DNA of 64,000 nucleotides from Eledone cirrhosa (GCA_964016885.1 OZ024751.1:41912001-41976000); one strand, 5' to 3'; shown: positions 27,282 to 62,505, counted from the first letter of the stretch. Translations and numbers: made by a program. The notes: generated from the sequence alone by a model not told the origin.

Positions 27282-27634
27282 TCACTCCTCACACACGTTC
27301 GGGATTTTAGGTATTTCATATTTGACCAAGAAGTACTCCAATTCGCAAAACAGAAGAGCCACCAAAAGACTGAACAAGACAGTGACTAGACCTACGTTAA
27401 AGAACTTCATACGAGTATACATGGTTTGTAGTTCTCTCGTGCTCGTTCGTTCGTCTTCTTCTTCTTCCGCCTCCTGCTTCTGTTTTTGTCCCTTCGGGTG
27501 GACCGCCGCCCGGTTTCTATAGCAACCGAAGAACGCACGGCACGCATTTTTCGTCTTGTAGCGAACAATTGACATTATGATTGCACTCAATACAGACACT
27601 GCTGTCACCACCAGCGAAAAGACAAGGATGGTAA
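27282..27634 (-). CDS. Gene A exon 6 (M3, short cytoplasmic loop, M4, stop)
   Basis: ttccttcacag| acceptor in phase 1; hydrophobic M3 and M4; ends ...PNVCEE-TGA. The six exons total 1260 nt, i.e. 419 aa with no internal stop. Confidence 0.92.
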
Positions 27635-28195
27635 CTGTGAAGGAAAAATAGAAAAGAAATATACCATATGTGTGTGTGTGTGTGTGTGTGTGTGTGTGTG
27701 TGTGTGTGTGTGTGTGTGTGTGTGTGTGTGTGTGTGTGTGTGTGTGTGTGTGTGTGTGTGTGTTCAAAATCACTAGACGTATCTGAGGAACTTGCGAATC
27801 TAGAGTCAGGTTCGATCCACAAACAGATCGCACCTCAAGCTGTTCACCGGAGAAACAATTGTAATACGTAATAAATTGTGTTCCGATGCATCACTGATTC
27901 TTCGTTTTCCATATTATGTATATATATATGTCAAGTTCTGGATTTGATTCTTCCTCTATATCTCTTTTCTATCTCCTTTCCCTCACTCTCTATCTTTCTC
28001 TGGGAGGACTCTGCTGTACTCAGACCTGGAGAGGAAATTAGCTCCACCAGATTTTTTTTAAATACCGTATGTCAATATGGCGCCCCTACGACTCTCTCAA
28101 AAGTTATGGGTCCATACATACCATATATACAATGTGGAGTGCAGTGTAGTGTAGTGAAGGTTTAATAAATATATATGTAATTTTCTGCTACTTAC

Positions 28196-28740
28196 ATGTT
28201 ATAGGAACTGTTTCAAAAGTGATATTCTTAGGAAAAAACTTTGAATAGTACACAAAGAATGTGACAAAAGCCAGGAAGTTGGTGATACTTAAAGAAATCT
28301 GCTCTCCGCTCTCGGGAGGAGTGAAAAACGTGAGTGACGCGATGAAGATAAGTAGGGAACACGGAACCATAAAACTCAGCATGTAGTAAGTTGATTTCCG
28401 CGTTGCAGAAATCAGAAACATTATATTGTTAGAGATGTTTTTTTCATTGCATGTCAGGAAATTAAGAATCGGTTTGTGCCAGTTCTGACTGCTTTTCTCT
28501 TTGTTATCGTCTAAGTTTTTGAAATCCGCGAGGCGTATGGCCTTCTTGTCCATGTTCGGAATCAAATTTTGAAGAAGGACCGTGCTTTTGATGTCCAGTG
28601 CGCATGTCTGTTTGTCGAATGGAAATGTGTAGAAGTTGACCATACAGAGCGTTACAAACTTGTGGTAGATGATAGCTGACATATTGCCATCGTAGTTTAC
28701 TTTCACTGTGTCTACTTTAATATTATGTGGTGATTCAGCA
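28196..28740 (-). CDS. Gene A exon 5 (Cys-loop, loop C, M1, M2)
   Basis: Phase-2 join gives N-S-AESPHN.... Cys-loop C-MVNFYTFPFDKQT-C (C-x13-C), M1 with Pro, M2 PESGEQISLSITNFL, |gtaagt donor. The acceptor (gaaaaag|) is weak, so the 5' boundary is less certain. Confidence 0.93.
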
Positions 28741-28759
28741 CTTTTTCATGAGGTTCAAG

Positions 28760-28890
28760 TTCAAACATATAGATGAGGTCCAAACATATAGATGAGGTCC
28801 AAACATATAGATGAGGTCCAAACATATAGATGAGGTCCAAACATATAGATGAGGTCCAAACATATAGATGAGGTCCAAACATATAGATGA
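28760..28890. repeat. 19-bp minisatellite (7 copies) abutting the gene A exon 5 acceptor
   Basis: caaacatatagatgaggtc at 28762, 28781 ... 28876. Confidence 0.92.
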
Positions 28891-29134
28891 TGGTGGGGTT
28901 GATAGAAATGATAGAAAGAAAGAGAAAAATAGAAAACAGAAAAATTATGAATAGATGTTGTGATGGAATCACAATTATGAATGCATGTTGTGATGTAATC
29001 ACACATACATACATATCACAGAGAGAGAGATCTATATATTACATACACATACATTCACACATACATACATACATACATACATACATACATACATACATAC
29101 ATACATACATACATACATACATACATACATACAT

Positions 29135-58705: not shown

Positions 58706-59613
58706 TATATATATATAAAAGGACGAATTGTTATGCCCTCACTTGGGTAAACCTACAGTAACGGTACGTTACACTCCCTATATATATATATATATATATA
58801 TATATATATATTGTGCGTTCGAAAAAATGAACTTGTTGAGGTATTTATAAAATGATTGATTCGATGAATCCCACGAGGCTGAAACAGTTGTAAGCCAAAT
58901 TATGACGTAAATAATAGCGTTTGGTAACATATTTTAATGAATAATTTGCTCCACGTGTAAATAATCTAACAAGTAGGAATTCATAGCGTTCCTCCAAAAG
59001 GGCTGACTGAATAAGCACACGTGTACTTTTTTCCTTTCCCTCATCTTTTCCCTTTCGTCAATCTTTCTATTTCATCTTTTATTTCTTATTCTAACATCTG
59101 ATGAAGGACTAGGATTCGAAACGTTAAAATTCTTAATATATCAAGCGTTAAATTAATATAAATGTTCATTGTATAGTGTTGTTTGCTTTGTGTGTGTATG
59201 TATATATATGTGTGTGTGTGTGTGTGTGTGTGTGTGTGTGTGTGTGTGTGTGTGCCCGCGCGCGCACATGCACATAAGAAAAAAACAATGAAACTTCAAT
59301 CACATATTTTTATTGATTATTGATCTGTTAAGTACATTTCACAGATGATTGTTTGTGTGTAAGACATACACAGACACACACATATATATATATATATATA
59401 TATATATATATATATATATATATATATATATATATATATATATATATATATATGTATGTATGTATGTATGTATATGAATATATAAGCTCAGCATTTTTGG
59501 CAAAACCGCGGAACTAGCAGTAGATCTTCTATTTTCACTAATATTATGTCTGTGTGTGTGTGTGTGTGTGTGTGTGTGTGTGTGTGTGTGTGTGTGTGTG
59601 TGTGTGTGTGTGT

Positions 59614-59963
59614 TCACTCCTCACACACGTCCGGGATTATATGTGTATCAAATTTCCCCAGGACATTCCGGAACATATACAGAATAATTGCAGTCAAAAC
59701 AAGGTTCAAAACAATCATCACAACTACGTTAAAGTACTTCATACGAGTATACATGGTTTGTAGTTCTCTCGAGCTCATTCCTTCATCTTCTTCTTCCGCC
59801 TCCTGCTTCTGTTTTTGTCCCTTCGGGTGGACCGCCGCCCGGTTTCTATAGCAACCGAAGAACGCACGGCACGCATTTTTCCTCTTGTAGCGAACAATTG
59901 ACATTATGATTGCACTCAATACAGACACTGCTGTTACCACCATCATGTAAATAAGGTTATAAA
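59614..59963 (-). CDS. Gene B exon 6 (M3-M4, stop)
   Basis: ttcctccacag| acceptor; clear paralog of gene A exon 6; ends ...PDVCEE-TGA. Confidence 0.92.
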
Positions 59964-60394
59964 CTGTGGAGGAAAAATAGAAAACAAAATATATAGATGT
60001 GCGTATATATATATATATATATATATATATATATATATATATAAGGCCCCTCTTGCTGACCAGGGCAATCAAAGTGTAATCATACAAACCTTCATAATAT
60101 GCATTTTTAAACTTGCATATCATCGACATTGCTATTTCGCTGTTAATAAACTATCATCCTTCTACATTTAACGATCATACAGTACCGTTTTATGAAATCG
60201 ATTCTGCAAGTGGCCCCGGGTGCAACCGGGCTCAGCTGCTAGTATATATATATATAAGCAAAAGGGGTATTCAATTTGTTGCTATAATAATAGAAAAAAT
60301 ATGGTTTTATAAATATAGTTTCCATTTATTTAATATCATTGAATATATATATATATATATATATATATATATATATATATATATATATATATAT

Positions 60395-60621
60395 CTAAGG
60401 CGGGTAAAATCCCCGAGATCCATGGACGAGTTCTCTCCAGCGGTCTCTGTCCCTCATTATCGCTGCCATATCCTGCATCTCCAACAGACCAGTGTCTGTC
60501 CTTAGGGCATCAACATATGTTAACCTTGGTCTTCCTCTTCTAGTGTGTCCATGTAGGGGCTCCCAAAGGAGCACTGAGTGCAATGTCAACTCTGGATGTC
60601 GGTGAGCATGTCCAGCCAACC
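60395..60621 (-). mobile_element. RTE-type LINE 3' end, near-identical to 33203-33430
   Basis: Same AGHAHRHPEL..RGRP sequence, also abutting (TA)n. Confidence 0.8.
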
Positions 60622-61960
60622 TATATTTATACTAGCAGTGGTACCCGGCGTTGCACGGAATAATGTATATCTCGTTGGAGGTGTCTTGGGTAATTTAATG
60701 ATAGGGACCCCTGTCCTTTCATCTCATTTCTACAGCTGAGTAAACTGGAGCAACATGAAATAAAGTGTCTTGCTCAATGAAACAACACATCACACGGTCC
60801 GAGAATTGAACTCACAACCTTTCGATTGAAAACCCAATGCTCTAACCTCTTAGCCATGCGCCTTCACATCAATGAAGGGCTTCATTGATTCCCAGAATGG
60901 TTAGCGTGTTTCAAATGCATGTTGGGAAAGTTTTTCAAGTCTTCATGGAAGGGAAGGTCGGGCTTGGGCTTGGTCTTGGTAAGAAGAGATGTTTATGCAG
61001 AGCAATATATATATATATGCACACTGCTCTGCATATATTAATTGTTTCTACTTTTGGCACAAGGCCAGCAATTATCCCAGTGTATTACTGGTACTTTATT
61101 TTAGCGACTCCGTAAGGATGACAGGCAAAGTTAACTTCGGTGGGATTTGAACTCAGACCATAAAGAACCGTAACTCTTTGCTGTAAAGCATGGTGTCCAA
61201 CGCTCTCCTGATACTGCCAATTCAATATATTAGCAGTAGATTTCATTTTGGCTGTTGTGGACCAAAGTAAATGTGTAGATGCTGTACAATGCCAAAAACA
61301 ATGAAATGATTTTTAAGAAATTTATGAAGAAATATACTTAAATTCCCTTATACAACCAGGTGTCATATAAGAAGGGGCGTCTAATAGGCCAGCAAATACG
61401 GTATATACAATAGCTTTAGTGGCTAGATCCAGAAGTGAAGTGCAGTGCAGTGAAGATAAATAAATATACATAATGTGCAGTATACGAATTGGCAGAGTCG
61501 TCAGAACGTCGGATAGAATGCTTTGCAGTATTCGTTCTGAATCTCTGCTTTCTGAGTTCAGATTCTACCGAGGACAACATTGTCTTTCATCCATTTAAGG
61601 TCGATAAAACAGTACCAGTCAAATACTGAGATAGACTCTTCCTCAATATCTCTTACTTCTTCTATATCTTTTGTGCTCGATGAAAAAAATACCAGTCAAG
61701 TTCTGGGTTCGATTCTTCCTCTATATCTCTTTCCTACTTCCTTTCCCTCACTCTCTATCTTTCTCTGGGGGGACTCTGCTGTATTCAGACCTGGAGAGGA
61801 AATTAGCTCCACCATGTTTTTTTTTTAATGCCGTATGTCAATATGGCGCCCCTACGACTCTCTCAAAAGTTATGGGTCCATACATACCATATATACAATG
61901 TGCAGTGCAGTGTAGTGTAGTGAAGGTAAATAAATATATGTGTAATTTTATGCTACTTAC

Positions 61961-62505
61961 ATATTATAGGAACTGTTTTTAGACTGTCTGTCTTGGGGAA
62001 ATACTGAGAAAGGTGCACAAAATATGTGATGTAACCCAGGAAGTTGGTGATACTTAAAGAAATCTGCTCTCCGCTCTCGGGAGGAGTGAAAAACGTGAGC
62101 GACGCGATTAAGTGAAATAGTAAATACGGCACAAAAATAGTTAACACATAGTAAATTGATTTCCGCTTGACAGATAAAATAAACATTATATTGTTAGAGA
62201 TGTTTTTCTTATTGCATGTCAGGAAATTAAAATTCGGTTTATGCCAGTTCTGACGGCTATCCGCTTTTTTGTTATCTAATTTCTTGAAATCCTTGGTACT
62301 TATGGCATCCTTCTCCATGTTCGGAATCAGATTTTGAAGAAGGGCCGTGCTTTTTATGTCCAGTGCGCATGTCTGGTTATCGAATGGAAATGATGAGAAG
62401 TTGAGAATACAGAACGTTACAAACTTGTGGTAGATGATAGCTGACATATTGCCATCGTAGTTTACTTTCACTGTGTCTACTTTAATATTATGTGGTGATT
62501 CAGCA
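61961..62505 (-). CDS. Gene B (paralog of gene A) exon 5
   Basis: Same 545-nt length and splice sites as gene A exon 5. Cys-loop C-ILNFSSFPFDNQT-C and M2 GEQISLSITNFL. Upstream exons must lie beyond the window end. Confidence 0.92.

Follow-up and report, generated by a model that had tools for sequence, protein, structure and literature searches.

The 64,000-nt stretch of Eledone cirrhosa DNA analysed here (G000:C11:41912001-41976000; the window, in which all coordinates below are counted) contains two minus-strand Cys-loop receptor genes, A and B, approximately 33 kb apart. Their exons were reconstructed from GT-AG junctions. Gene A consists of six exons between positions 42780 and 27282 and encodes 415 amino acids without stop or frameshift. 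Gene B has the same exon sizes and encodes 414 amino acids, again without stop or frameshift, with its exons 4 to 1 lying past the window end (window-equivalent positions 65313-65422, 66176-66220, 73918-74057 and 75806-75860). The two proteins are 72.8% identical; gene A extends over 15.5 kb and gene B over 16.2 kb, and their insertions differ. A third copy, C, with 430 amino acids and 52% identity to A, is located on contig C27; when the genome was searched by protein and DNA, no A/B-type copies besides A, B and C were found. The closest database proteins were one from Octopus sinensis (XP_036369744, P0001) and one fragment from O. bimaculoides (XP_014780908, P0002), while the ESM Atlas returned generic pentameric ligand-gated ion channel clusters only.

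Differences between A and B are clustered in about eight divergent islands in four exons. The longest A=B run was 45 among 520 polymorphic sites, a length reached in none of 20,000 permutations. In the transmembrane domain (TMD), an earlier note on this DNA had described an outer M1 helix differing at 10 of 16 residues and followed by an identical block. We obtained the same counts: a divergent island at 28344..28391 (10/16 residues; proportions of silent and replacement differences, pS and pN, of 0.37 and 0.35), and then 24 of 24 identical residues with a single silent difference from inner M1 to position 9' of M2 (28272..28343). The values given for outer M2 with the M2-M3 loop (28197..28271, 14/25 residues; pS 0.36, pN 0.29), for the start of M3 (27612-27632, 6/7) and for M4 with the tail (27285-27395, 24/37) were likewise recovered exactly. 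For inner M3 and the cytoplasmic loop (27456-27611), said to be 50/51 identical, we found one difference in 51 residues plus a one-codon gap in a Glu run. The last three segments belong to exon 6 of gene A (27282..27634), which ends in the stop codon. In gene B, exon 5 (61961..62505) holds outer M1 (62109-62156), the inner block (62037-62108) and outer M2 with the loop (61962-62036), and exon 6 (59614..59963) encodes M3, the cytoplasmic loop and M4 up to the stop. The proposed split into a divergent outer and an identical cytoplasmic side holds for M1-M3, which switch to identity near mid-membrane (alpha7 positions 224, 9' and 279), but it fails for M4, where the cytoplasmic half differs at 7/11 and the pre-M4 segment at 4/20 residues.

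The earlier note had placed the divergence in the TMD. The TMD islands are real, but the extracellular domain (ECD) is patchy as well. Exon 1 of gene A (42726..42780, signal peptide) encodes 18 of 18 amino acids as in B. Exon 2 (32957..33096) encodes an N-terminal helix differing at 12 of 19 residues (about 33041-33096) and a beta1 strand differing at 3 of 28; this helix sits at the top of the receptor, and the adjoining intron end is divergent too. In exon 3 (45 nt, 32196..32240), the beta1-beta2 loop (32223-32240) differs at five of six residues, and this 18-nt island directly follows an intron end with one mismatch in 48 nt. Exon 4 (110 nt, 30555..30664) runs from beta2 to loop A, and exon 5 (28196..28740) from beta5 to the M2-M3 loop. 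Within exon 5, the Cys loop (C149-C163, 28602..28646) and the beta8-beta9 loop (28479..28550) differ at 5/15 and 11/24 residues. No difference was found in the 91 nt of beta5-beta6 and loop E (28650..28740), which belong to a 103-nt identical run of coding sequence spanning intron 4. In a second species (organism B, contigs of run X5), this tract differs from the shared A/B sequence, and we infer that it is a conversion tract. The orthosteric loops are nearly the same in both proteins (loop A, 1/16 residues differing; B, 1/17; C, 1/9; D, 2/13; E, 1/29).

Silent divergence tracks replacement divergence along the gene. Over the four variable TMD blocks pS was 0.39 and pN 0.35, versus 0.038 and 0.006 in the two conserved blocks. 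A codon model gave dS 0.515 and dN 0.51 in the variable blocks, hence a ratio of dN to dS (omega) of 0.98 (p=0.96 against 1), and dS 0.038 in the conserved ones. Using only codons for the same amino acid, silent differences numbered 10 in 25.5 sites of the variable versus 2 in 51.8 sites of the conserved blocks (p=2e-4). Across the unchanged codons, they fell from 16/61.5 sites beside an amino-acid difference to 0/37.3 sites at nine or more codons away (0 of 100,000 draws). Relative to paralog C, both sets of blocks show a silent divergence of about 70%; the conserved blocks are therefore not constrained at silent sites. A Sawyer-type test on all 520 sites gave p<5e-5. The earlier note had named in advance the outcome that would speak against diversifying selection, namely that silent sites would have diverged as much as the replacement sites of those blocks, and this is what the omega of 0.98 represents. 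Gene conversion, which it had listed as the alternative, thus accounts for the identical blocks, the M3-M4 loop included, but leaves over the rest of the pattern. The conservation of the M3-M4 loop, in turn, needs no special function since its silent sites are equally identical, and unusual constraint on this loop was rejected on that ground and because 26 of its 52 residues differ from C, although it is homogenised between A and B. Two further candidates were discarded: an artefact of composition or one-directional mutation (the third-position GC content, GC3, is 0.42-0.48 in the variable blocks and the substitution spectrum is mixed), and C as the donor, which is too distant (dS 1.1-2.1 in the outer TMD). 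GC3 is 0.59 in the homogenised blocks versus 0.45 in C, which at best hints at GC-biased conversion.

Between A and B, 34 of 733 positions are mismatched in homologous non-coding tracts (4.6%), much as at the silent sites of the conserved blocks. Against this value, the 10 silent differences in 25.5 sites of the variable blocks are in excess with p=4e-7, and against a 12% baseline with p=6e-4. A recent duplication followed by strong positive selection alone was rejected accordingly (10 silent differences in about 26 sites; p=1e-7 at 4.6%, 6e-4 at 12%). The similarity of intron 5 noted earlier is real, with 14 mismatches in 263 nt (27930..28193 versus 61695-61958), but it is confined to one part of this intron, which is 561 nt long in A and 1,997 nt in B, and a very high-copy repeat present at the same place in both genes makes up 191 nt of the match (27930-28120).

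A different history would be a recent duplication, at about 5% divergence, with the divergent patches imported from an older source, either a lost or unassembled paralog or two long-balanced alleles brought into tandem by unequal crossing over. Introns, signal exon and conserved blocks indeed agree on 0-8% divergence between A and B, and run X5 contains at least five outer-M1 variants. Copies may also be collapsed: in run X1, depth over 27270-28760 was 12-15 for A contigs, 2.6 for a B-like contig and 3.7 for a C-like contig, so that A may be multi-copy and collapsed in the assembly, or this may be sampling noise. However, protein and DNA searches of the assembly find only the three copies, and C is too far away to donate. 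Moreover, both genes carry derived changes (residues 234-308 contain 30 differences, of which A accounts for 10 derived changes and B for 15, with 5 unresolved), and most intron sequence is unalignable, which together with the different insertions in the two gene spans fits an old duplication. We regard a recent duplication as highly improbable; selection on the patches would still be required under it, and only the history would differ.

To include the second species, X5 contigs were aligned to A and to the TMD part of B, and 8 of 18 records were considered. Among these matches, five contigs (depth 14-29) differ in outer M1, whereas the inner block is covered by two contigs (depth 105 and 42) that show one or two differences in 53 nt. 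In the second species, too, there are thus several variants that vary in outer M1 and agree in the inner block; they may be alleles or paralogs. The minimum of five outer-M1 variants of the A/B clade suggests a larger expansion in another octopod-like species. Within 48 reliably read nucleotides of outer M2, the differences number 16 between A and B, 6 between A and the X5 contig, and 12 between B and that contig. Informative sites grouping A with B were 0/4 in outer M2 and 6/7 elsewhere (Fisher p=0.015, for the 20 X5 rows listed). That is, X5 contigs are A-like in the outer-M2 block and fall outside A and B elsewhere; the gene tree therefore changes along the gene, as conversion predicts.

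The divergent islands correspond to one zone of the receptor. We defined a belt comprising the beta1-beta2, Cys and beta8-beta9 loops, the pre-M1 segment (beta10-M1), outer M1-M3, the M2-M3 loop, M4 and the tail. Differences amounted to 70/132 residues within the belt versus 43/265 outside. Only 2 of 396 circular shifts reached this contrast, both at most five residues from the true register. For the ECD alone the figures were 26/57 versus 16/140 (0/196 shifts). None of 100,000 segment shuffles reached the contrast, and jittering the boundaries by four residues gave a median p of 0.008 and a worst of 0.03. As controls, C versus O. sinensis P0001 yielded 0.60 in both belt and core, and O. sinensis versus O. 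bimaculoides 16/87 in the belt versus 11/77, while A and B over the same scheme gave 42/89 versus 7/82. The beta1-beta2, Cys, beta8-beta9, beta10-M1 and M2-M3 elements are named as the ECD-TMD interface in PMC10899235 (in part).

Replacement changes in the two genes are frequent as well: omega was 0.89 on the A and B branches versus 0.20 on the C branch (p=1e-9 overall; p=3e-4 for the variable TMD). In simulations at omega 0.2-0.3, 17-23 amino-acid differences were expected in the variable TMD blocks, and the observed 54 were reached in 0 of 400 runs each. These numbers might also arise neutrally if conversion was patchy and both copies were freed from constraint, so that patches escaping conversion by chance simply drifted. 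Omega is indistinguishable from 1 everywhere, family-conserved sites in the patches change almost as often as others, and B carries radical changes in M1, all of which relaxation would explain. On the other hand, both reading frames are open although about seven stops would be expected without constraint (P=7e-4). The patches coincide with the interface belt, a region that does not stand out as variable among single-copy orthologs, whereas the least constrained sequence, the cytoplasmic loop that differs so widely from C and the intron flanks, is homogenised. Pore-lining positions are retained within the patches, and over the mature protein as a whole conserved sites change less than others (35/166 versus 77/230, p=0.007). 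We consider such a neutral origin improbable.

Instead, we favour, with moderate confidence and from sequence comparison alone, the view that A and B are tandem duplicates whose shared blocks were most likely homogenised by repeated conversion, and that selection likely keeps two versions of the ECD-TMD belt apart. An orphan gene similar to nicotinic acetylcholine receptors (nAChR) would have duplicated in tandem, giving A and B. This duplication would be old, with dS about 0.5 where conversion was resisted, and probably predates the split from the second species. Repeated gene conversion would then have produced the near-identical shared blocks, silent sites included, while conversion tracts crossing the belt would have been purged, since an interface exchanged only by half would impair gating or since the two versions serve separate functions. 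The orthosteric site and the inner pore would then be common to both channels, and A and B would be set apart by their gating and by how lipids or lipophilic compounds modulate them. Since the belt far exceeds a ligand pocket in size and coincides with the coupling interface, the favoured form of this explanation is two modules, gating and lipid-facing, that are co-adapted and whose partial exchange is selected against. Bouzat (2008) reportedly found that interface loops must match in chimeras. Of the diversifying selection proposed by the earlier note, the part that stands is selection on the divergent segments, as divergence held against conversion; neither an omega above 1 nor a confinement to the outer TMD was found.

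Several points weigh against this explanation. The belt boundaries were set once the data were known, on the basis of alignment and textbook topology and without coordinates, and the N-terminal helix and inner M4 are divergent though outside the belt definition. In no block was omega significantly above 1; the best was the N-terminal helix (4.5, p=0.085), and the non-conserved sites of the variable blocks, a comparison of two sequences with low power, gave 1.13-1.19 (p 0.6-0.8). Within the patches, even positions kept between C and O. sinensis vary freely (omega 0.74-0.82; 14/27 versus 16/22, p=0.16), and relaxation would give the same result. The gene copies with DNA number three. As to conversion, the non-coding tracts were picked for alignability, whereas fixed 40-nt exon flanks differ at 59/478 positions (12%) and most intron sequence does not align. 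The Sawyer-type test was not significant on the 128 silent third positions alone (p=0.085 and 0.12). The inner M1-M2 block is conserved family-wide anyway, with 0/24 differences between the two Octopus orthologs and one or two in 53 nt to X5, and the X5 comparison rests on short contigs and a part of the matches.

As a special case of selection on the belt, its target might be a membrane-accessible pocket, such that distinct lipophilic compounds open or tune A and B via the TMD. The TMD was compared with alpha7 (numbering, A = alpha7+26). Because the orthosteric loops are near-identical and lack the acetylcholine aromatics, a difference in ligand must lie elsewhere, and the mid-membrane switch in M1-M3 would suit such a site. 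In addition, B gained in-membrane polar or aromatic residues at the equivalents of alpha7 218 (Tyr), 222 (His), 11' (Tyr) and 273 (Asn). In alpha7, positions 253 and 278 are at the intersubunit site of PNU-120596 (PNU), while 222 and 273 bound the peripheral M1-M3-M4 site (PMC9618078, in part). Positions 222, 273 and 278 differ between A and B. However, 278 is just a Leu to Met change, and the pore positions -1', 2', 6', 9', 13' and 16', as well as 19', 15' (alpha7 M253) and the M1 stripe 212/216/220/224, are unchanged. An intersubunit pocket of the ivermectin or PNU type, as suggested in the earlier note, hence finds little support; a remodelled pocket within a single subunit, bounded by M1, M3 and M4, is possible and the likelier site. 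Differences follow a 100-degree periodicity in M1 (p=0.017), with p-values of 0.07 in M2, 0.94 in M3 and 0.67 in M4. Yet with about 63% of the block residues changed, three of four landmark matches are expected by chance, omega does not exceed 1, and the belt takes in ECD loops, the whole of M4 and the tail, far beyond one pocket. A pocket as the selected target seems rather unlikely.

Both proteins belong to the Cys-loop family. The Neur_chan_LBD domain scored above cut-off in A and B, and Neur_chan_memb did so in A (29.8 versus 28.1), with the B exon piece below (22.9, E 1e-4). A C-x13-C loop (C149-C163), a signal peptide and four transmembrane helices are present in A and B, M1-M2 align without gaps to alpha7 and delta, and the helices are also present in a low-confidence model of P0001 (single-sequence AlphaFold, predicted local distance difference test 41). 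In the block from inner M1 to position 9' of M2, A, B and C have G-E-Q at -2', -1' and 0', with Glu at -1' and no Pro at -2', and the A and B channels are predicted to be cation-selective. Residues of the acetylcholine site are missing in A, B, C and P0001: Thr occupies the loop B Trp column, and loop C has one Cys and no Tyr pair. An acetylcholine-binding alpha subunit was rejected for lack of the loop B Trp and the loop C Tyr-x-Cys-Cys..Tyr, and A and B are predicted not to be acetylcholine-gated.

This loss of acetylcholine-binding residues is one feature that A and B have in common with octopod chemotactile receptors (CRs). The coding region of CRs is intronless (PMC13174522, in part), though, versus six exons in A and B, and in our tree A, B, C and P0001 formed their own clade (100/99) outside a clade of seven intronless CR-like open reading frames (ORFs; 98/97). 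An identity as CRs was rejected on both grounds. CRs are otherwise recognised by expression in sucker epithelium and by gating through hydrophobic compounds. The tree comprised 22 of 31 rows, covered the exon-5 region only and was unrooted, with no outgroup; in it, A, B and C were placed next to the CRs (91/94, long branches). Judged by their sequences, A and B are intact six-exon nAChR-like octopod genes outside the CR clade. A second, intron-bearing octopod line of sensory Cys-loop receptors, with a fixed orthosteric site, a diversified outer-leaflet pocket or coupling ring, and natural lipophiles or lipids acting from the transmembrane side, is a doubtful extension; if true, conversion would have erased all but the selected surface and thereby mapped it. 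An intronless CRT1-like cluster lies on the same contig C11, 18 Mb from A and B at 23.6-23.93 Mb (L007-L029), with L010 matching CRT1 at E=1e-129. It contains more than 20 intronless CR-like ORFs, including the near-identical pairs L007/L008, L010/L012 and L014/L015 and one ORF with an in-frame TAG. Run X4 of the same species holds B-like and C-like pieces whose lengths would be compatible with spliced RNA, and the RAD run X6 shows no depth over the exons.

The locus also contains repeats. A 19-bp minisatellite abuts the exon 5 acceptor in A (28741-28890) and B (62506-62870) with unequal copy numbers, and this acceptor is purine-rich and without polypyrimidine tract in A, B and also C. A 48-bp minisatellite in intron 3 of A (31551-32122) is common to intron 3 of B. 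Intron 1 of A (36300-40400) carries a broken element resembling long interspersed nuclear elements, with ORF fragments like those of reverse transcriptase and endonuclease (a naming based solely on ORF motifs), and a 73% identical relative is found inside intron 2 of B. Between B and A, a 311-bp tandem array (51246-58025; 99%, near-perfect) consists of two oppositely oriented arms (5.2 and 16.6 copies) that meet at 52864; it may represent a young satellite or an artefact of assembly hiding collapsed sequence. Inverted-repeat elements of 200-450 nt, in several copies and similar to miniature inverted-repeat transposable elements, occur at 58044-58591 and 15516-16356.

In the literature we found no study of the A/B clade or of conversion among such paralogs, a weak negative, and the supplements of PMC13174522 and of a bioRxiv venom-gland preprint may list the clade. 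The evolutionary mechanism is known: a peak of divergence under gene conversion occurs in human red/green opsin exon 5 and in RHD/RHCE (Innan 2003, Teshima and Innan 2008, as described in PMC3924837, in part). As with A and B, these are tandem paralogs about 24-32 kb apart, with introns that resemble each other more than the selected exon parts do and with a tree topology that shifts along the gene. In contrast to opsin exon 5, A and B have their islands spread over several exons and mapping to one structural zone of an ion channel. The pattern is real and its target is unusual. Conversion would act as a natural filter, the surviving A-B differences marking the surface that selection cares about. 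A and B would thus offer a ready-made chimera pair for the co-evolution of interface loops, outer helices and M4 and for the question of natural tuning of Cys-loop receptors from the membrane side. The two belt versions may give the channels different gating or different sensitivity to fat-soluble compounds.

Among relatives, P0001 is in the same clade as A and B and is 42% identical to A, and the end of P0002 suggests the same intron position after the M2-M3 loop. Unlike A and B, one sequence was found per Octopus species, and the outer TMD is kept (5/41 versus 24/41 between A and B, p=2e-5). The 'CR-like' clade (PMC13174522, in part) and the 'PSG unknown 3' group (10.1101/2025.06.15.659772, in part) are likewise uncharacterised nAChR-like groups beside the CRs, the latter group being their sister. 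The alpha7 modulator sites for PNU-120596 and cholesterol (PMC9618078 and PMC5767682, both in part) share with our case the three positions that differ between A and B, but 15' is unchanged here, and the alpha7 sites are drug or lipid modulator sites, not natural agonist sites shown under selection. Finally, the CRs (CRT1, PDB 8EIS/9E6B; CRB1, 8EIZ) resemble A and B in being octopod and nAChR-derived, lacking the acetylcholine aromatics, and having a short cytoplasmic loop and lineage-specific duplication, while A and B differ by their five introns, their 22-26% identity to CR-like ORFs and their own clade. Among seven CRT-like paralogs of this genome, variation is highest in loops E, F, C, B and D and in outer M1 (0.21-0.34) and low in outer M2 and M3 (0.05), which agrees with the published selection at the outer orthosteric pocket of CRs (10.1101/2025.10.28.685082, in part). 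Where the orthosteric site varies in chemotactile receptors, the surface marked in A and B would be the ECD-TMD coupling ring and the outer TMD.

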